Source: Escherichia phage vB_EcoM_SA35RD. From it: a stretch of 64,000 nucleotides of DNA. Location of the stretch: sequence record OL960577.1; one strand, given 5' to 3'. Every line of letters starts with the position of its first letter. Positions within the stretch are counted from its first letter, which is position 1. Positions 16,617 through 50,607 of this stretch are shown piece after piece. The notes under the pieces are model-generated. The model did no database searches. It saw only the letters and a program-made list of their open reading frames with translations, and was not told the DNA's origin. The position numbers and the translations under genes are program-made.

Positions 16617-17747
16617 TTATGGATATGTATAGATGATACCAGTTTCCAAAGCAGTTTTATGGATGATGTATCCATTACGTGATTCTTGAACATCAACTTC
16701 CGGATAGTCTTTCATCATCTTCTGAAGAGTGTAACGATGCAGGTAGTATTTACTATCTGGATCTTCAGTTTTCCAATCTTTACCTTCTTCAGTCATTTTT
16801 TGGATTTCATCCATAACCCACCATCCGCACCAGATGTAAGCTGAAGTACGATGTGGAAGAGGATGAACATAAGGTAGTTCACCTTCTGGTTCTGGAGCAA
16901 CTTTATCAGTTACCTGAACTTGACCTTCTGCTGTAATAGTTTTTCTATCGTAATCAGTTGCAGTAATAGTTGCAGTAACTTCAATAGTTTGACTTCCAAT
17001 AGACGAGGTATCAACGGTATATACATTAGTTGACCCTTCTACAGGAGAAGAATCTTTCTTCCATGAATAAGTAATTTGTGCTTCTGGTGGTGCATCAGTG
17101 ACATTAGCAGTAAATGTGGCTGAAGCGTCTTGCTGAACATTAATAGAAGGAGGGGTCAACGTAACCTGTGGATTCATTGTCTTCTTATTAACCGTTAATG
17201 ATACTTCATTCGAAGTAACTTCCTTTGCATCATAATCTGTCGCAGTTACTTGGGCTACACATTTAATTCTTTTTACTCCATTTGTAGTTGGAGTATAATT
17301 AAATGTAGAGTTAGTTTCTCCACTAACTTGAGAACCGTCAACATACCATTGGTACGTAGCAGATGCACCTGATGGCTTCGAAGCCAAAGCAGCGGTAAAT
17401 TTAACAGCTGTTCCAATTACTCCTGCTGGAGGACTATTGGGAGTTACAGCTAAGGTAGTCGTTTGTGTCTTGTTTTGAACTGTGATGGTTGTAGAAGCTT
17501 CTGCTGTTTCAGCTTCAGCTTCTGGAACTGTATTTGTTGCAACTACTTTAATAGTCTTTTGACCGGCAGGTCCTTTTAGTACATAACTAAAAGTTGCTTC
17601 AGCTCCATCTTGCGGAACATCATCTACAGTCCAAGCATATGTAATAGTTCCACCTCCAGTTTCACCACTGGGAGTAGCAGTAAACTGCTTAGTCTCATCT
17701 ATAACTCCAGTAGGTGTTTTAGGAGTTATATCAACTGTAAAAGCCAT
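16617..17747 (-). CDS. hoc: highly immunogenic outer capsid protein Hoc
   Basis: 376 aa, Thr/Val-rich repeated Ig-like segments plus C-terminal Trp-rich domain; T4 Hoc size. Confidence 0.85.
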   Translation of the reverse strand: MAFTVDITPKTPTGVIDETKQFTATPSGETGGGTITYAWTVDDVPQDGAEATFSYVLKGPAGQKTIKVVATNTVPEAEAETAEASTTITVQNKTQTTTLAVTPNSPPAGVIGTAVKFTAALASKPSGASATYQWYVDGSQVSGETNSTFNYTPTTNGVKRIKCVAQVTATDYDAKEVTSNEVSLTVNKKTMNPQVTLTPPSINVQQDASATFTANVTDAPPEAQITYSWKKDSSPVEGSTNVYTVDTSSIGSQTIEVTATITATDYDRKTITAEGQVQVTDKVAPEPEGELPYVHPLPHRTSAYIWCGWWVMDEIQKMTEEGKDWKTEDPDSKYYLHRYTLQKMMKDYPEVDVQESRNGYIIHKTALETGIIYTYP

Positions 17748-17756
17748 AAGTTATCC

Positions 17757-18425
17757 TTATTTTAATGTTACGAAAGAAGAATTACGAGTTTCACGAATTA
17801 GAACTGATCCATCGCGATTAATATAATAAATTAAGCTAAATAATGTTTGGTGAGCAGAAGCGTGCACAAAACTGGTTGGACGAGATTTCCAATCTGGGGT
17901 TTCGGCTATCCATTGATAAATCCACCAAGGAACAGTAACATATCCTGGGGCTTTGCCTAATTTAATGAGTGTAGGACTAAAATTTTCAGGCAGAACAAAA
18001 TTTACTTCTTTATTTACTTCTGGCTCAGGCTCTTTTTCAGATTCAACAACCTGAGTAATTGCTTCTTCGAATTTATCATGGTCGAATTCTTTTTCTTGTT
18101 CGACAACTTCTAATACTTCAACTTGTTCTGTTGGAGAATCAAACAACAGAATAGCTTCTTCTTTAACTTCTTCGTTGGTGAAATTAACACCGTCCACATC
18201 ATCTGCGGCAGTAATTAAATCGGTGATAGATAATCCATCAGTTTCAGGTAATGGTTCATCAGCCAGTGCGTTAAGAGCTTCTTCGATATCAATAACAATA
18301 TTATCGAATGATTTTGTTTTCTTAACACTAATGCCAAATTGTTCCGCATATTCAAACAGTTTAGCTTTGGCTTCCTTTTTATCAGAAAGAGCACGTAACT
18401 CTTCAATATAGTCTTTATCGATCAT
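17757..18425 (-). CDS. inh: Inh, inhibitor of prohead protease
   Basis: 222 aa acidic protein at the T4 inh position between hoc and uvsW. Confidence 0.7.
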   Translation of the reverse strand: MIDKDYIEELRALSDKKEAKAKLFEYAEQFGISVKKTKSFDNIVIDIEEALNALADEPLPETDGLSITDLITAADDVDGVNFTNEEVKEEAILLFDSPTEQVEVLEVVEQEKEFDHDKFEEAITQVVESEKEPEPEVNKEVNFVLPENFSPTLIKLGKAPGYVTVPWWIYQWIAETPDWKSRPTSFVHASAHQTLFSLIYYINRDGSVLIRETRNSSFVTLK

Positions 18426-18438
18426 GATATTTCCTCAT

Positions 18439-18446
18439 TATAAATA
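18439..18446 (+). promoter_or_regulatory. late promoter motif TATAAATA upstream of uvsW
   Basis: Exact motif 30 nt before the uvsW ATG. Confidence 0.55.
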
Positions 18447-18475
18447 TAGTTATATTTATTACATGGTAATTTGAC

Positions 18476-19990
18476 ATGACTGACATTAAAGTACATTTTT
18501 ATGATTTTAGTCACGTGCGCATTGAATGCGACGAAAGTACGTTTTACGAACTTCGTGACTTTTTTAGCTTTGAAGCTGACGGGTATAAATTTAACCCAAA
18601 ATATCGCTATGGGAACTGGGATGGTAGAATTCGTCTTTTAGATTACAACCGTTTGTTACCATATGGACTTGTAGGACAAATAAAAAAGTTCTGTAACAAT
18701 ATGAGTTATTCTGTATGGATTGACCCTAAAATCTTTGAGACTGAAGACCTTACCAGGGAAGATTTTGACTCATGGCTTTCTAAACAAGAAATTTATTCAG
18801 GCAACGCCAAAATCGAACCACATTGGTATCAAAAAGATGCAGTATACGAAGGACTAGTTAATCGTCGTCGAATTTTAAACCTTCCGACATCAGCAGGTAA
18901 ATCACTAATCCAAGCACTTTTAGCTCGGTATTATCTAGAGAACTATGAAGGTAAAATTCTCATTATCGTCCCTACAACAGCATTGACAACCCAGATGGCT
19001 AATGATTTTGTTGATTATCGCTTGTTTAGTCATTCGATGATTAAGAAAATTGGCGGTGGTGCTGATAAAGCGGACAAATCTAAAAACGACGCTCCAATTA
19101 TTGTTGGCACCTGGCAAACGGTAGTTAAGCAGCCTAAAGAATGGTTCTCTCAGTTCGGTATGATGATGAACGATGAATGCCACTTAGCAACAGGCAAAAG
19201 TATTTCTTCAATCATCTCAGGATTAAATAATTGCATGTTTAAATTCGGTTTATCCGGCTCATTAAGAGACGGAAAAGCCAATGTAATGCAGTACGTAGGT
19301 ATGTTCGGCGAAATCTTCCGTCCTGTTAGCACGTCTAAATTAATGGAAGACGGACAGGTAACTGAGCTTAAGATTAATAGTATTTTCCTTCGTTATCCGG
19401 ACGAATTCACTGTTAAATTAAAAGGTAAAACATACCAAGAAGAAGTTAAAATTATTACCGGACTAAAACGTCGTACAAAGTGGATTGCTCAACTTTCAGT
19501 CAAATTGGCTAAGAAAGACGAGAACGCCTTTGTAATGTTTAAACACGTTACACACGGTAAAGAAATATTTGAAGCTATTAAAGAGCTTGGATACGAAAAA
19601 GTTTATTACGTATCAGGTGAAGTTGATACTGAAACACGTAATGCGCTTAAAGTCATGGCAGAAAATGGTAAAGGCATTATTATTGTCGCATCATATGGAG
19701 TATTCTCTACTGGTATTTCAGTCAAGAATCTTCATCATGTTATTTTTGCCCATGGTGTTAAATCAAAAATTATCGTACTTCAAACCGTAGGTCGTGTGCT
19801 TCGTAAGCACGGTTCTAAAGCTGTTGCTACAGTTTGGGATCTCATAGATGACGCAGGTGTAAAACCTAAATCATTAAATACTAAAAAGAAGTATACTCAT
19901 CTTAATTACTTGTTAAAACACGGTATTGATCGTATCCAACGTTACGCTGATGAGAAATTTAACTATGTAATGAAAACAATTAATTTATAA
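18476..19990 (+). CDS. uvsW: UvsW RNA-DNA / DNA helicase
   Basis: 504 aa; helicase motifs (GKS Walker A, DECH box); late promoter motif upstream. Confidence 0.9.
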   Translation: MTDIKVHFYDFSHVRIECDESTFYELRDFFSFEADGYKFNPKYRYGNWDGRIRLLDYNRLLPYGLVGQIKKFCNNMSYSVWIDPKIFETEDLTREDFDSWLSKQEIYSGNAKIEPHWYQKDAVYEGLVNRRRILNLPTSAGKSLIQALLARYYLENYEGKILIIVPTTALTTQMANDFVDYRLFSHSMIKKIGGGADKADKSKNDAPIIVGTWQTVVKQPKEWFSQFGMMMNDECHLATGKSISSIISGLNNCMFKFGLSGSLRDGKANVMQYVGMFGEIFRPVSTSKLMEDGQVTELKINSIFLRYPDEFTVKLKGKTYQEEVKIITGLKRRTKWIAQLSVKLAKKDENAFVMFKHVTHGKEIFEAIKELGYEKVYYVSGEVDTETRNALKVMAENGKGIIIVASYGVFSTGISVKNLHHVIFAHGVKSKIIVLQTVGRVLRKHGSKAVATVWDLIDDAGVKPKSLNTKKKYTHLNYLLKHGIDRIQRYADEKFNYVMKTINL

Positions 19991-20004
19991 GGGCTTCGGC
20001 CCTT
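19989..20004 (+). terminator. stem-loop between uvsW and uvsW.1
   Basis: AGGGC-TTCG-GCCCT hairpin; no T-tract. Confidence 0.4.
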
Positions 20005-20015
20005 AGGAGATAAAA

Positions 20016-20246
20016 ATGGTACTTGAATTTAAACAATTTTTATACGAAGCATCTATTGACGAATTCATGGGTAAAATTGCTAGTTGTCATACCTTAGAAG
20101 GGCTTGAAGAATTGGAAGCTTATTATAAGAAACGTATAAAAGAAACGGAATTAAAAGATACAGATGATATTTCTGTCAGGGATGCCTTAGCAGGTAAGCG
20201 TGCCGAACTTGAAGGCGATGATGAGGATGTGGAAGAAGACTTCTAA
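20016..20246 (+). CDS. uvsW.1: UvsW.1 small acidic protein
   Basis: 76 aa ORF with AGGAG SD directly after uvsW, as in T4. Confidence 0.7.
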   Translation: MVLEFKQFLYEASIDEFMGKIASCHTLEGLEELEAYYKKRIKETELKDTDDISVRDALAGKRAELEGDDEDVEEDF

Positions 20247-37447: not shown

Positions 37448-37756
37448 TTACATAAGAAGCAAACGTTCTACCGGAGTACCATCAACCGAAATTACTTTAT
37501 CAAGGCGGAAAGAACGCCACTGACCTAACTTGGTATCGAATGCTCGAACTGATTCACGAGGTTCAGAACGAACTTCTGTTGCCGGATTGTTATTTTCATA
37601 TTTGACTTCAAGTTCATCGCGAGAAGCAAACATAGTACGAACATCACCGTTAGCCTTTTCAAATACAACACAATGAACGCCTACAGACAGAATAGTTTTA
37701 ATACGTTCACGAAGAACCATAGTTTCTTGTTCAGTTAAAATCATATTATTCACCAC
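37448..37756 (-). CDS. hypothetical protein (T4 31.1/31.2 position)
   Basis: Track ORF starts at a GTG at 37756; an ATG at 37744 would give 98 aa. Confidence 0.5.
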   Translation of the reverse strand: MVNNMILTEQETMVLRERIKTILSVGVHCVVFEKANGDVRTMFASRDELEVKYENNNPATEVRSEPRESVRAFDTKLGQWRSFRLDKVISVDGTPVERLLLM

Positions 37757-38327
37757 AAAAGTTTCGGATTTGTTCCCAATTCAGAGAACGAAGATTATTA
37801 CGAGAGTACTGAATTACTTCAATACCGGCTTGTTTTAGAATGTCTGCCCAATTTTCAGGAGATCTGTCATATAATTCTGCGTATACAACCTTTTTAATAC
37901 CTGACTGCGTAATAGCTTTAGTGCAATCAGGACATGGAGAAAGCGTCGTATATAACGTAGCACCTTCAATAGAATTACCTTTACGAGCTGCAAACAAAAT
38001 TGCATTCAGTTCCGCATGGATTTCGTTATTGGCAGACCATGCACTATGAGCGGCCCGATGTTCTTTAGCCAAAACAAAATTATCTACCCGTCCAAATGCT
38101 GTAGTGCCTTCTTTATGTCCAGCAACGATGACTGGGATTGGTTTATTCTTCAACCAACCATTTTCAGATGCATGTTCGCAACAGTTAACGCCACCTGAAG
38201 GAGAGCCATTATAACCTGTAGAAATAATGCGTCCATCTTTTTCAATGACGGCGCCAACTTTCCATGAACAACATTTTGATTCTTGAGAAATCAGATATGC
38301 AATCTGAAGGTATGTGCTAGCTTTCAT
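37746..38327 (-). CDS. cd: dCMP deaminase
   Basis: 193 aa; zinc-binding HAELNAI and PCPDC motifs of the cytidine/dCMP deaminase fold. Confidence 0.95.
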   Translation of the reverse strand: MKASTYLQIAYLISQESKCCSWKVGAVIEKDGRIISTGYNGSPSGGVNCCEHASENGWLKNKPIPVIVAGHKEGTTAFGRVDNFVLAKEHRAAHSAWSANNEIHAELNAILFAARKGNSIEGATLYTTLSPCPDCTKAITQSGIKKVVYAELYDRSPENWADILKQAGIEVIQYSRNNLRSLNWEQIRNFCGE

Positions 38328-39319
38328 TATTGAACCTTATTAATATAAGTTAACAGCTCTTTAGTTTGTTCCCAACTGATGCACGCATCGGTAACGGAAA
38401 CGCCATAGGACATATTATCAGAAATTTTTTGATTTCCTTCATGTAGGAATGATTCTATCATAATTCCTTTGACCAAATCATTAGCTGCTAAATTTTTACC
38501 AATACCAATTTGATTGCTATAATGCCCATCAGCGTTTGCATGGCTACAATCGACCATTACATAATGATTCAGACCTACTGCCCTTGCTTTGTTAGAAGCT
38601 TCTTGAATATCAGAAGAATGATAGTTCGGGCCGTTGGTCCCGCCACGCAATACGATATGCGTATTCTGATTACCTTCAGCTTCAACAATGCCTACAGTAC
38701 CATCGACGTCCATACCCATATACCGATGAGGCCAGGCGGCACTATACATCGCGTCTGTAGCTACTTTAATAGAACCATTGGTTGCGTTCTTGAAGCCTAC
38801 GCACATCGGTAGACCTGAAGCAATTTCACGATGTGTCTGACTTTCAGTCGTACGGGCGCCAATAGCAACCCATGAGAAAATACCAGAAAGATACTTAATC
38901 GTGAATGGGTCTAATACTTCAGTTGCTAATGGAAGTCCCATACGTAGAAGTTTACGACACAATGTTCGTGCAACTATAAGACCGTGGTTCATATCAAAAC
39001 TTCCGTCAAGATACGGATCATTTACAAGACCTTTCCAACCTACGGTAGTTCGAGGCTTTTCAAAATAAACGCGCATCACTAACAGAACATTAGGAAGACG
39101 AGTTTGAAGTTCAGCCAGACGTTTGCCGTATTCAACAGCAGCAATAGGGTCATGAATTGAACAAGGACCTACAACAATAAGTTTGCGTGGGTCTTCACCG
39201 TTCATAATCGAATTAACTTGTTCGCGATGAGAAGCCACTTGTGATGCGTAAGCTTCCGACAAAGGAATAATCTCAGCTAGTTCTTTTGGAGAAATAAGTT
39301 TTCCGACGACAGGTAACAT
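38327..39319 (-). CDS. 3-deoxy-D-arabino-heptulosonate 7-phosphate (DAHP) synthase, class I (AroG/F/H-like)
   Basis: 330 aa; GPCSIHDP, RVYFEKPRTTVGWKGL, GARTTESQ, ILRGG, DCSHANA, ESFLHEGNQ, TDACISW align with recalled E. coli AroG including its four metal ligands; AAGGA SD; TAATG overlap with cd start. Confidence 0.9.
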   Translation of the reverse strand: MLPVVGKLISPKELAEIIPLSEAYASQVASHREQVNSIMNGEDPRKLIVVGPCSIHDPIAAVEYGKRLAELQTRLPNVLLVMRVYFEKPRTTVGWKGLVNDPYLDGSFDMNHGLIVARTLCRKLLRMGLPLATEVLDPFTIKYLSGIFSWVAIGARTTESQTHREIASGLPMCVGFKNATNGSIKVATDAMYSAAWPHRYMGMDVDGTVGIVEAEGNQNTHIVLRGGTNGPNYHSSDIQEASNKARAVGLNHYVMVDCSHANADGHYSNQIGIGKNLAANDLVKGIMIESFLHEGNQKISDNMSYGVSVTDACISWEQTKELLTYINKVQ

Positions 39320-39327
39320 AACAATCC

Positions 39328-39453
39328 TTAGGAGATATAAACAGATTCTGATTCAACAATACCTTTAACCGGATTAGACAGGCTAAGTTGGTAGTGCTCA
39401 GATTTATGACCATTCTCGATAGTAATGAGATAGCTCTCATTATAGTGTTCCAT
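39328..39453 (-). CDS. possible small ORF, 41 aa
   Basis: ATG at 39453 overlapping the 3' end of the upstream ORF; stop overlaps the DAHP synthase SD; coupling geometry only. Confidence 0.3.
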   Translation of the reverse strand: MEHYNESYLITIENGHKSEHYQLSLSNPVKGIVESESVYIS

Positions 39454-39676
39454 ATACTCGAGTTGCTTCAACAAGACCATCACTGCCTAATTTAAGATTA
39501 GTAATTTGGTCGCCATCTTTAGGATTAACAATTATGAGAAAAGAACGTGGAGATTCTTGAATAACTCGTAATGTTGCATCCTTGAAACGTTCAGACACTT
39601 TATTTATGAGTGCTTGAGCAAATTCTTTTACTTTAATCTGAAATTCGTGCACTGTAATTGGGTTTTCACTTAGCAT
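39440..39676 (-). CDS. hypothetical protein (cd.x region)
   Basis: 78 aa ORF, GAGGAAA SD, behind an early promoter. Confidence 0.5.
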   Translation of the reverse strand: MLSENPITVHEFQIKVKEFAQALINKVSERFKDATLRVIQESPRSFLIIVNPKDGDQITNLKLGSDGLVEATRVYGTL

Positions 39677-39705: not shown

Positions 39706-39735
39706 ATAGTATCACAACTCTACCATGTTGTAAAC
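39706..39735 (-). promoter_or_regulatory. early promoter upstream of ORF 39440..39676
   Basis: Minus strand GTTTAC-18 nt-TACTAT, then leader caacacaatGAGGAAAacaga-ATG. Confidence 0.55.

Positions 39736-40416: not shown

Positions 40417-40417
<1 letters not shown>
40226..40417 (-). CDS. hypothetical protein (cd.x region)
   Basis: 63 aa acidic ORF, stop overlapping pseT start. Confidence 0.5.
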
Positions 40418-41503
<1,086 letters not shown>

Positions 41504-46064: not shown

Positions 46065-46114
46065 TATATTCTCTCAATAGTGACTCATCCATGAGTCAAT
46101 TATAAACAAAATTC

Positions 46115-48370
46115 TTAAAGCTTACAAGCGGAGCAATCTTCAGCTTTAGGTGTTTCTAATTCATAGTCATCTGTACCAGAACCATCTCGAGTGTTATGAT
46201 AGTAAAGGTTCTTACCACCAAAGTACCAGAAGTAAAGCAAGTCATCAAGCATTACAGACATTGGCACTTTGCCTTTCTCAAAGACTGAAGGGTCGTAGTA
46301 TGTATTAGCAGAAGCAGATTGGCACACCCATTTTAACATGATAACAACTTGTGTCAGATAAGGCTTATTACCTTTCTTAGCGAGTTTCCACGCATAGTCA
46401 TAAAGACCCATGTTGTGTTCAATATTAGGAACTACTTGACGGAAATTACCTTCTTTAGATTCTTTAATACTTACCGGGCCACGAGGTGGTTCAATACCAT
46501 TTGTGCTATTTGAGACCTGGCTGCTTGATTCGCATGGCATGAGAGCACTGAGTGTACTGTTACGAATCCCGTGTTCTTTAAGTTCGGCTCGTAGTTCTTC
46601 CCAATCACATACATAGTTTGGGGCTGCGATTTGGTCAATCTTTTTATTGTACCAGTCGATAGGTAATTCGCCTCGAGACCATTTAGTGTCTGAATAATAC
46701 TCGCAACGTCCTTTTTCTTTGGCGAGTTTGATTGATGCTTTGATAAGGCCATATTGCAATCTCTCAAACAATTCATGAGTCAAATCGTTAGCGTCTTCAT
46801 ATGAAGCGAAGTTAGAAGCTAACCATGCAGCATAGTTCGTAACACCAACACCAAGATTACGACGCTTTTTGGCTTTTAAAGCTTCTGGAACCGGATAATC
46901 TTGATAGTCTAACAGGTTATCAAGTGCACGTACTTGTACTTCGGCAAGTTCATTAATTTTATCTTGGTCTTGCCAATCAAATTTATCTAACACGAATGCA
47001 GATAATGTGCATAAACCAATTTCAGCATCAGGACCATTCACATCATTAGTTGGAATAGCGATTTCACAACATAAGTTACTCTGACGAATTGGAGCTTTTT
47101 CACGAATAAATGGAGTGTAGTTATTCGTGTTATCAACAAACTGTGGATAAATTCGAGCAGTGCCAGAACGTTCAGTCATGAACAATTCAAAGAGTTCTAG
47201 TGCTTTGATTCTTTTCTTTCTGATTGTTGGGTCTTTTTCAGCTTTCTCATAAAGCTCACGGAATTTATCTTGATCTTCAAAGAACGAGTAGTATAGTTCG
47301 CCTGACATTTCGTGAGGGCTAAATAAAGTAATATAATCATTTTTACCAAGGCGTTCCATCATAAGGTCATTAATCTGAATTCCGTAGTCCATATGTCGAA
47401 TACGGTTTTCATCCACGCCTTTGTTATTTTTCAGAACTAATAGGTTCTCTACTTCTAAGTGCCACATCGGATAATACGCTGTAGCAGCACCACCACGAAT
47501 ACCACCTTGAGAACAAGATTTTACTGCAGTTTGGAAATGTTTCCAGAATGGAATAACACCCGTATGTCGAACTTCACCCACACCGATCTTAGAACCTTCT
47601 GCACGAAGCATACCAACGTTGATACCGATACCAGCTCGTTTAGAAATATATTCAATAATTGATGCTGAAGTTTTGTTAATAGATTTTAACGAATCACCAG
47701 CTTCAATAACTACACAACTAGAGAACTGGCGAGTTGGAGTACGAGCACCTGCCATAATTGGGGTTGGCAATGAAACTTGATGAGTAGAAACGGCATCATA
47801 AAAACGAATAATATGTTTCAAACGGTCATGAGTTTCGTCTTGGTGTAAGGCCATGCCAATAGCCATGATAGCAAACTGGGGAGTTTCATAAATCTTCCCA
47901 GTTGTTTTATCTTTAACTAGATATTTTTCTTTAAGCTGCATAGCACCAGCATAAGTCAGGTCAAAGTCTCGTTCATGTTTAATCTGTGAATCGAGATAAA
48001 TGATTTCTTCTGCTGAATATTGAGACAACAGCTCAGGGTCATATTTGCCTTCATTAACACAATAAGAAATATGGTCGATAAAAGCAGGCGGTTCAAACTG
48101 CCCATATACATCTTTACGAAGTGCAAACATTAGCCCTTTGGCGGCGACATACTGATAATCAGGTTCTTCGACAGAAATCGAGTTAGCTGCAACTTTAATA
48201 CAAATCTTCTGGATATCTTTGGTGCTCATCCCGTCAACAAGATGGGTCTTAATTTCTTCGTACAATTCATATGGGTCAATTTGTGTTCCTTCACATTGCC
48301 AGGTCAGAACTTGGATAATTTTCTGTGCATCAAAATTTTGGGATACGCCACTGCTCTTAGTTACTTGCAT
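46115..48370 (-). CDS. nrdA: ribonucleotide reductase large subunit
   Basis: 751 aa; class Ia alpha-subunit features including NLCCEIA and C-terminal CSACKL. Confidence 0.95.
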   Translation of the reverse strand: MQVTKSSGVSQNFDAQKIIQVLTWQCEGTQIDPYELYEEIKTHLVDGMSTKDIQKICIKVAANSISVEEPDYQYVAAKGLMFALRKDVYGQFEPPAFIDHISYCVNEGKYDPELLSQYSAEEIIYLDSQIKHERDFDLTYAGAMQLKEKYLVKDKTTGKIYETPQFAIMAIGMALHQDETHDRLKHIIRFYDAVSTHQVSLPTPIMAGARTPTRQFSSCVVIEAGDSLKSINKTSASIIEYISKRAGIGINVGMLRAEGSKIGVGEVRHTGVIPFWKHFQTAVKSCSQGGIRGGAATAYYPMWHLEVENLLVLKNNKGVDENRIRHMDYGIQINDLMMERLGKNDYITLFSPHEMSGELYYSFFEDQDKFRELYEKAEKDPTIRKKRIKALELFELFMTERSGTARIYPQFVDNTNNYTPFIREKAPIRQSNLCCEIAIPTNDVNGPDAEIGLCTLSAFVLDKFDWQDQDKINELAEVQVRALDNLLDYQDYPVPEALKAKKRRNLGVGVTNYAAWLASNFASYEDANDLTHELFERLQYGLIKASIKLAKEKGRCEYYSDTKWSRGELPIDWYNKKIDQIAAPNYVCDWEELRAELKEHGIRNSTLSALMPCESSSQVSNSTNGIEPPRGPVSIKESKEGNFRQVVPNIEHNMGLYDYAWKLAKKGNKPYLTQVVIMLKWVCQSASANTYYDPSVFEKGKVPMSVMLDDLLYFWYFGGKNLYYHNTRDGSGTDDYELETPKAEDCSACKL

Positions 48371-48666
48371 ATGTCCTCTATATTAAATTCGTCTTTAAAA
48401 AGTTTATTAACCACTAGAGCTATTATATCACCATGACAGGCTTTTGGTTTACATGTGCATCCCAGACGCATACCACGTAAAGGTTCTAGATGAGCTTTTG
48501 TGATTTCTCCACACTTAATTCTCTTAATAAAATCCTTTTTGAAAAGCTCAATAGCTTCTTCTCGGGAAGAGGCATCCTTGCCTACATAATTTCCCCAGAA
48601 TGTGCCACGATGAATATTAACATCAAAATCGGATTTATATTTATTCACAACGCGGCACATTTTCAT
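48361..48666 (-). CDS. hypothetical Cys-containing protein (T4 nrdA.1 position)
   Basis: 101 aa ORF overlapping nrdA start; synteny only. Confidence 0.55.
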   Translation of the reverse strand: MKMCRVVNKYKSDFDVNIHRGTFWGNYVGKDASSREEAIELFKKDFIKRIKCGEITKAHLEPLRGMRLGCTCKPKACHGDIIALVVNKLFKDEFNIEDICK

Positions 48667-48920
48667 TACATGTCCTCTGCAATAATTTCTTCGTATTCTT
48701 TAGGAGTCAAGACCGTGATATTAAAATAAACCAACGGTTCTTTTTCTATACCGAATCCACCACAGAATTCACGATATTCATAAATTCGTTCATGTGAATA
48801 ACAAATGAATCGTTCACCTTTAACTGTGATTTCACTATTTGGTGAAGGGATATCCAGTTCACTTGGATTTTTCATTTCAAAAATTGTGGTGCCATATGAA
48901 TTAATAAAACGTAAAATCAT
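48666..48920 (-). CDS. hypothetical protein (T4 nrdA.2 position)
   Basis: 84 aa ORF, coupled starts and stops. Confidence 0.5.
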   Translation of the reverse strand: MILRFINSYGTTIFEMKNPSELDIPSPNSEITVKGERFICYSHERIYEYREFCGGFGIEKEPLVYFNITVLTPKEYEEIIAEDM

Positions 48921-48921
48921 T

Positions 48922-50607
<1,686 letters not shown>

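Follow-up and report, generated by a model that had tools for sequence, protein, structure and literature searches.

A phage-lineage type I-alpha DAHP synthase with a rewritten feedback pocket between pseT and cd of Escherichia phage vB_EcoM_SA35RD

This work examines a gene for DAHP synthase (3-deoxy-7-phosphoheptulonate synthase) in Escherichia phage vB_EcoM_SA35RD, located in a 64,000-nucleotide stretch of sequence record OL960577.1 that is referred to here as the window. The open reading frame (ORF) occupies positions 38327 to 39319 on the minus strand, stop codon included, and its 330-amino-acid product belongs to the type I-alpha family of DAHP synthases. Comparison with phage and bacterial relatives places the protein in a phage lineage in which the active-site residues are kept and the pocket that binds inhibitory aromatic amino acids has been rewritten. 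The explanation that we favor as a whole, and consider somewhat probable, is that these phages carry an active, feedback-free enzyme that is expressed early and pushes carbon into the host shikimate pathway. The gene itself is not new; it is an annotated, widely deposited accessory gene of RB69-like (Mosigvirus) and related T4-like phages. What the analysis chiefly adds is that the feedback pocket has been rewritten across the whole phage clade and that the synthase has a nested co-distribution with a phage gene of the Peptidase_U32 family.

The family assignment was made from profile matches, predicted fold, and conserved active-site residues. The start of the ORF is the earliest possible start codon downstream of an in-frame stop, and the translated protein matches Pfam PF00793 (DAHP_synth_1) with E = 5e-75 and 252 bits, against a cutoff of 25.5. 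It also exceeds the cutoffs of the NCBIfam aroFGH equivalog TIGR00034 (427.7 versus 173.2 bits) and of NF009395 (E = 1e-136; score of 455 versus 343), while missing those of the isozyme-specific models, namely, the AroG equivalog NF006723 (363 versus 568) and the AroH subfamily NF009396 (386 versus 463). The match to PHROG 5045, a family labeled phospho-2-dehydro-3-deoxyheptonate aldolase and placed in the auxiliary metabolic gene (AMG) category, is full-length, with residues 1 to 330 on profile positions 8 to 337 of 341 (E = 3e-182). By sequence, the best solved relative is Escherichia coli AroF (PDB entry 6agm; E = 5e-105), followed by AroG and the Neisseria meningitidis and yeast enzymes; alignment with the E. 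coli enzymes gives identities of 51% to AroF, 47% to AroG, and 44% to AroH. An AlphaFold model (66 sequences; pLDDT of 91) superposes on AroG and on the N. meningitidis enzyme with TM-scores of 0.95 to 0.96 and a root mean square deviation of 1.6 Å, and it contains the beta6a/6b hairpin that is specific to I-alpha enzymes (strands 198 to 203 and 209 to 214).

An earlier interpretation of the window, made without database searches and called here the sequence-only reading, had identified the ORF as a class I DAHP synthase with four metal ligands and substrate-binding segments. The motifs that it listed (GPCSIHD, DCSHANA, ESFLHEG, TDACISW, RVYFEKPRTT, and GARTTESQ) are all in the translation, and its assignments stand on alignment with AroF, AroG, and AroH. 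The phage metal ligands C53, H260, E289, and D311 correspond to AroG C61, H268, E302, and D326 and are invariant across 127 aligned sequences (29 phage and 98 bacterial). The residues that bind phosphoenolpyruvate (PEP) and erythrose-4-phosphate (E4P), which are R92, K97, P98, R99, T100, G163, A164, R165, K186, and R234 by alignment with AroG, are all retained, the KPRTT loop included, and they are likewise kept in four other phage genera. The sequence-only reading had allowed for a best match to 3-deoxy-d-manno-octulosonate 8-phosphate (KDO8P) synthase or to another fold. That identity was rejected, as the protein has the KPRTT loop and its top profile matches are exclusively to models of DAHP synthase. 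On these sequence and fold-prediction grounds, the product is a type I-alpha DAHP synthase and not a KDO8P synthase, and it is probably catalytically competent, converting PEP and E4P to DAHP and inorganic phosphate.

For the feedback pocket, the 127 sequences were scanned for alignment columns that are near-fixed within each group yet differ between the phage and bacterial proteins. Only seven positions discriminate the two groups: P150I, Q151K, D155G, L156I, S180P, F209Y, and T223A in AroG numbering, or I141, K142, G146, I147, P171, Y200, and A214 in the phage protein. The known Phe- and Tyr-inhibitor-site residues are held by two segments and the hairpin, and all seven positions fall there; five of them belong to a set of 11 positions that the literature connects with the feedback site or with feedback resistance (hypergeometric P = 3e-7). 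For six of these seven positions, the phage residue occurs in none of the 98 bacterial sequences; Q151 is kept in every one of these relatives, and S180 and F209 are kept in all but one each. The side chains of Q151/Q152 and S180/S181 contact the main chain of bound Phe or Tyr, D155 stabilizes the site, and the substitutions P150L, S180F, L175D, and F209A/S give feedback-resistant enzymes (PMC9529685).

The N-terminus is affected as well. The sequence-only reading had judged the protein about 20 residues shorter than AroG at this end and had proposed from this that the enzyme may be deregulated. The shortfall relative to AroF, AroG, and AroH is actually about 9 residues; the rest of the length deficit comes from internal deletions of 5 and of 2 to 3 residues near the C-terminus and from a shorter C-terminal tail. 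Ahead of the position of AroG L17, all phage sequences have 6 to 10 residues (8 in the present protein), compared to 14 to 51 in the bacterial sequences, and the cut removes the equivalents of AroG D6/D7 and AroF N7/N8. An AroF lacking Ile11 is feedback resistant (PMC10729320). The inhibitor pocket conserved elsewhere, formed by P150, Q151, S180, F209, and the N-terminal segment, is therefore not found in the phage protein, which has I141, K142, P171, and Y200 at those positions. Deregulation is thus still plausible, on the seven pocket substitutions and not on a 20-residue truncation. With the pocket rewritten and the N-terminal segment missing, the enzyme should escape inhibition by Phe, Tyr, and Trp, and the reading with the best support is of an enzyme whose catalysis is normal but which would not be shut off by aromatic amino acids.

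The distribution of the gene was surveyed by tblastn against 50,697 deposited phage records, of which 211 contain a DAHP synthase homolog, most of them annotated as this enzyme. Identical proteins (100%) occur in HX01, Shf125875, phiC120, O157 typing phage 3, p000v, and the LF82 series, comprising many Mosigvirus records. The 4.5 kb around the gene are 98% identical to many of these genomes, and the cd and pseT flanks are 96 to 97% identical to RB69, which identifies the window as DNA of an RB69-like (Mosigvirus-type) phage. The gene is consequently not the novelty that the sequence-only reading took it for: besides these records and the PHROG family, ORF64 of phiC120 has been described as a DAHP synthetase domain (PMC8022965), and the copy in Kanagawavirus KLB31 has been proposed as an AMG for aromatic amino acids (PMC11845039), in both cases from annotation only. 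Mosigvirus-type pseT (≥90% identity) is found in about 140 records, and 138 of these carry the synthase at ≥95% identity, the shortfall being RB69, which was deposited twice. The same slot between pseT and cd holds the gene in Kanagawavirus CIP9, Marfavirus F48, Winklervirus X20, and Bragavirus phiP4-3 and in all 10 T4-like IMG/VR loci; at least five further T4-like genera share it, and the synthases of other genera are 58 to 77% identical. T4 has only cd.1 to cd.5 between cd and pseT, as the sequence-only reading had stated, and the synthase is absent from T4, RB69, Tegunavirus TG1, and Pectobacterium phage PM2, such that it is not a standard member of the T4 core.

The 29 phage-type proteins are monophyletic in 100 of 100 neighbor-joining bootstraps and sit on a long stem. 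Pairwise identity within this clade goes down to 53%, with a median of 63%, and 34% of positions are invariant across it. The nearest bacterial proteins are 50 to 55% identical and come from many phyla, and the G+C content at third codon positions (GC3) of the phage gene is 0.30, like that of the adjoining phage genes, compared to 0.51 to 0.57 for aroF and aroG. A recent capture of host aroF was rejected on the basis of these identities, the long stem, and the phage-like GC3. The ratio of nonsynonymous to synonymous substitution rates (dN/dS) is 0.12 against phage F2 and 0.14 to 0.18 against other genera, indicating purifying selection. Synteny, monophyly, dN/dS, and GC3 together suggest an accessory gene that is old, has been inherited vertically under selection, and has occasionally been lost.

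More distant homologs turned up in several other viral or nominally viral records. Dozens of giant-virus bins (GVMAG contigs in IMG/VR) contain a putative viral type I-alpha DAHP synthase that is 40 to 48% identical to the phage protein. Aeromonas phage HJ05, which has a 79-kb genome and is not T4-like, encodes a homolog with 38% identity (locus L021, 6257 to 7420) that is annotated as hypothetical; the gene was apparently acquired independently, and none of its neighbors has a Pfam match. The DAHP synthases on contigs named Acinetobacter phage MD-2021a are 45 to 48% identical, and these contigs are short. Two fecal contigs deposited as "Bacteriophage sp." look bacterial (aroD, an ABC transporter, and MarR) and are uninformative.

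The slot in which the gene lies is bordered upstream by the polynucleotide kinase gene pseT (40417 to 41316, minus strand) and downstream by cd (37746 to 38327, minus strand), which encodes a 193-amino-acid dCMP deaminase identified from its ORF and from the annotation of RB69 and of phage F2 (98.5% identical). A cd.2 homolog of 78 amino acids (DUF7320) lies at 39440 to 39676 on the minus strand. Directly upstream of the synthase, at 39328 to 39453 on the same strand, is a 41-amino-acid ORF that partially duplicates the C-terminal half of cd.2 (DUF7320 positions 44 to 76, E = 1e-6; PHROG 15876) and is annotated in F2. The Shine-Dalgarno sequence AAGGA that the sequence-only reading had pointed out is present 5 nucleotides before the ATG of the synthase gene (plus-strand coordinates 39325 to 39329), as is the TAATG overlap with cd (38325 to 38329, minus strand), in which the last A of the TAA stop codon is common to the ATG. 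That reading had taken the overlap to build the synthase into a nucleotide-metabolism operon. However, in RB69 cd.2 joins cd through the same TAATG, and overlaps occur at 14 of the 35 gene junctions nearby. The coupling therefore gives no functional link to nucleotide metabolism; it is a generic property of the slot, says nothing about function, and was rejected as a clue. Nor is it universal, as X20 and phiP4-3 have one or two small ORFs between the synthase and cd.

A candidate early promoter (TTTACA, a 17-nucleotide spacer, and a TG-extended TACTAT) was found by consensus scan at 39706 to 39734 on the minus strand, in the interval separating cd.3 from cd.2. Among candidates upstream of cd.2, the 41-amino-acid ORF, the synthase, and cd, it is the closest, and an annotated early promoter of T4 occupies the same position between cd.2 and cd.3. 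Expression of the synthase early and together with cd is therefore likely, as judged from this positional match; no MotA-box middle promoter was found directly upstream of the synthase gene. By blastn and alignment, RB69 lacks a 1,094-bp segment (38331 to 39424) that comprises the 41-amino-acid ORF and the synthase. The segment is flanked by an imperfect direct repeat, ATAATGA(G/A)AGCTA, and its absence from RB69 looks like a 1.1-kb deletion. The partial cd.2 duplicate and the repeats at the segment ends suggest past recombination at the slot.

According to the favored explanation, the phage synthase would likely be transcribed from the early promoter ahead of cd.2. With its active site unaltered, it would make DAHP from PEP and E4P; with its pocket rewritten and its N-terminus cut, it would not be shut off by Phe, Tyr, or Trp; and as a phage copy, it would be independent of the TyrR- and TrpR-controlled expression of the host enzymes. 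Carbon would thereby still be driven into the host shikimate pathway, toward chorismate and prephenate, after host gene expression ends, presumably for the sake of a downstream product that the phage wants. Several observations weigh against this explanation. The phage encodes just the first of eight or so steps to prephenate, and RB69, TG1, and PM2 live without the gene, which they can therefore dispense with, at least under laboratory conditions. The residues substituted into the pocket are 97 to 100% conserved in the phage clade, which fits a retargeted pocket equally well, and the regulatory beta6a/6b hairpin is still present. The promoter was assigned from a match to the sigma-70 consensus, and such matches are not enriched relative to shuffled sequence. 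Finally, neither biochemical nor genetic work on a phage-encoded DAHP synthase was found in the literature searched.

One product that the phage might want is prephenate. RB69-type phages make 5-hydroxy-dCMP with gp48, a flavin- and O2-dependent thymidylate synthase homolog whose use of O2 was shown by 18O2 labeling, and then arabinosylate it (PMC13326640). The arabinosyl-5-hydroxycytosine cluster of RB69, which lies outside the window, also encodes gp50 (NC_004928, 26492 to 27661, minus strand); in the same paper, gp50 is given only as a table entry, "sugar or heterocycle reductase," with no other role, and prephenate is absent. This protein matches the Peptidase_U32 family PF01136 (42 bits versus a cutoff of 22.4) and is 82 to 89% identical across genera, more conserved than its neighbors. 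Using hhalign, the gp50 family aligns with RlhA, TrhP, UbiU, and UbiV (probability of 95.8%, E = 7.6e-9), and gp50 E188, C206, and C212 fall on the essential RlhA residues E161, C169, and C176. This E/C/C motif, essential in both RlhA and TrhP, is invariant in the gp50 family together with a C-terminal CX4CX3CX2C cluster, and with the PF01136 match it places gp50 in the U32 hydroxylase family. The characterized U32 enzymes of E. coli act in C5 hydroxylation of pyrimidines. RlhA forms 5-hydroxycytidine (ho5C) in 23S rRNA and requires Fe-S clusters and prephenate, the latter need having been shown through aroB, aroD, aroE, aroA, aroC, and pheA/tyrA mutants (PMC5727448). TrhP forms 5-hydroxyuridine (ho5U) in tRNA in a prephenate-dependent, O2-independent manner (PMC6599085). 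By analogy, gp50 could be an O2-independent route to 5-hydroxycytosine (5hoC) that takes over where gp48 cannot work, as in the anaerobic gut, and that is unneeded in strictly aerobic Acinetobacter hosts. Prephenate would be used about one for one with the roughly 64,000 cytosines per genome, a large demand that the deregulated synthase would help to supply.

We put this purpose forward tentatively, as possible rather than likely. In its favor, the distribution of the synthase nearly mirrors that of gp50 (211 versus 220 records overall; 25 versus 26 in Klebsiella, 7 versus 7 in Proteus, 6 versus 7 in Serratia, 4 versus 4 in Enterobacter, and 3 versus 3 in Edwardsiella) and does not mirror that of the arabinose-5-phosphate isomerase (274 records, with 57 in Acinetobacter and at most 2 in Klebsiella). 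All eight full-length T4-like IMG/VR contigs with the synthase also have U32, and the Acinetobacter phages, whose host is a strict aerobe, lack both U32 and the synthase while having the isomerase. At least nine unrelated viral contigs carry U32 next to arabinose-activation genes that resemble the isomerase and AfhE and lack any gp48-like gene within 8 kb of it, and there is a precedent for prephenate-consuming phage DNA modification in CmoA/CmoX (PMC12783734). On the other hand, the co-distribution may be mere shared ancestry in one enterobacterial T4-like group, possibly with a single gain of each gene. U32 occurs without the synthase in RB69, TG1, PM2, and apparently Thanatos, and never the reverse among the phages compared; the synthase is therefore nested within the U32 carriers. 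Independent co-occurrence of the two genes in non-T4 viral contigs was rejected, as the approximately 35 non-T4 U32 contigs have zero overlap with the list of synthase contigs. Comparison of 10 small neighboring ORFs with Pfam and PHROGs revealed neither a chorismate mutase nor any other shikimate gene, and tblastn with the TyrA chorismate mutase domain likewise yielded no phage chorismate mutase.

The default role for a DAHP synthase, and the one proposed by the sequence-only reading and for KLB31 (PMC11845039), is that of a general AMG supplying chorismate for the aromatic amino acids of phage protein synthesis, for folate, or for quinones. AroG, AroF, and AroH account for 79%, 20%, and 1% of the activity in E. 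coli and are feedback-inhibited (PMC10729320); in habitats rich in amino acids, flux would therefore be increased by a copy free of this control. Yet feedback matters where aromatic amino acids are plentiful, and there the phage has no need to synthesize them; a general role also leaves unexplained both the restriction of the gene to U32/5hoC-type phages and its absence from the far more numerous Tequatrovirus. The folate rationale of the sequence-only reading is disfavored, since the carriers use a flavin/O2 enzyme to make 5hoC in place of folate-dependent hydroxymethylation (PMC13326640), and T4, with its folate-dependent enzyme, lacks the gene. We regard a general AMG as possible rather than likely. 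Another explanation, which we find unlikely, is that the pocket is not dead but retargeted, with a phage-relevant metabolite exerting allosteric control in place of Phe, Tyr, or Trp. Retention of the hairpin and near-complete conservation of the substituted residues across genera that differ down to 53% identity would be expected of such a site; however, this conservation could equally be structural, the pocket having simply been filled in, the N-terminal loss removes part of the binding site, and no candidate ligand is known. The enzyme might also serve as a carbon sink, whereby consumption of E4P (and PEP) pulls transketolase toward pentose phosphates for nucleotides and arabinose-5-phosphate. 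The carriers do need extra pentose for arabinosylation, drawn from ribulose-5-phosphate (PMC13326640), and there is partial co-distribution with the isomerase. Nevertheless, by pathway stoichiometry, removing E4P should lower the pentose yield of the nonoxidative branch; at least 22 Klebsiella records have the synthase without the isomerase, and the opposite pattern is seen in 57 Acinetobacter records; and RB69 arabinosylates its DNA with no synthase at all. A sink is thus very improbable, and a link to the arabinose branch in any form considered (arabinose-5-phosphate supply, E4P sink, or KDO8P-like chemistry) was rejected given the differing isomerase distribution, the RB69 counterexample, and the E4P-type motifs. 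Least credible is a decoy, a noncatalytic or KDO8P-type protein, or a decaying passenger: nothing specific speaks for these, including the decoy or counter-defense role raised by the sequence-only reading, and the retained catalytic and E4P-specific residues (KPRTT loop), the score above the aroFGH equivalog cutoff, the dN/dS of 0.12 to 0.18, and synteny across at least five genera speak against them.

Homologs of the phage U32 protein (45 to 58% identity) also occur in large uncultivated viral contigs, such as a 466-kb JGI contig (locus L016, 10001 to 11086). On some of these contigs, the U32 gene adjoins genes for a dCMP deaminase, a thymidylate-kinase-like protein, a uracil-DNA glycosylase, and PolIII-alpha; on others, it adjoins genes for an SIS isomerase and an NTP-transferase/APH-kinase, with no thymidylate synthase homolog within 8 kb.

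Elsewhere in the window, a match to the WYL_2 Sm-like SH3 beta-barrel domain (E = 1.5e-9) was obtained for a 102-amino-acid gp31.1-like ORF between cd and gene 31 (37448 to 37756, minus strand). The name "tail fiber protein" that this ORF bears in several deposited records is apparently a misannotation. The gene for the large subunit of ribonucleotide reductase, nrdA (approximately 46078 to 49237, minus strand), is apparently split into two ORFs by a homing-endonuclease gene, as judged from how phage F2 (98.5% identical) is annotated (17079 to 20238 of the F2 locus).

If the favored explanation is correct, the phage gene would be a clean example of a virus disabling the control of a host pathway instead of adding a new reaction, and the protein could serve as it stands as a deregulated enzyme for making aromatic compounds. 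The co-distribution with U32 would, if it reflects function, be a concrete and falsifiable link between central metabolism and DNA hypermodification, and it raises the question, beyond the published 5hoC pathway, of how these gut phages modify their DNA without oxygen.

Of known systems, the carboxymethyl-cytosine system CmoA/CmoX of Synechococcus phage S-B43 resembles the proposed prephenate link, in that a phage hypermodification draws on the host prephenate pool, and the question of prephenate availability is left open by its authors (PMC12783734). It differs in having no DAHP synthase, and the connection of the present gene to DNA modification is hypothetical. The closest counterparts are the PHROG 5045 homologs in phiC120 (ORF64), HX01, Shf125875, O157 typing phage 3, CIP9, KLB31, F48, X20, and phiP4-3, which lie in the same slot; relative to the Mosigvirus copies, the present gene shows no difference and is simply another member. 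E. coli AroF, AroG, and AroH share with the phage protein the type I-alpha family, the fold, the active site, and the beta6a/6b hairpin. Unlike them, the phage-encoded protein lacks the first approximately 9 residues and has replacements at the inhibitor-binding positions Q151, S180, P150, and F209. In this respect, it is most comparable to engineered feedback-resistant enzymes (AroG P150L, S180F, L175D, and F209A/S and AroF delta-Ile11), as the natural phage changes hit the same positions. Unlike the engineered enzymes, the phage copies, whose resistance is predicted rather than measured, combine several such changes with an N-terminal truncation, all of them evolutionarily fixed.

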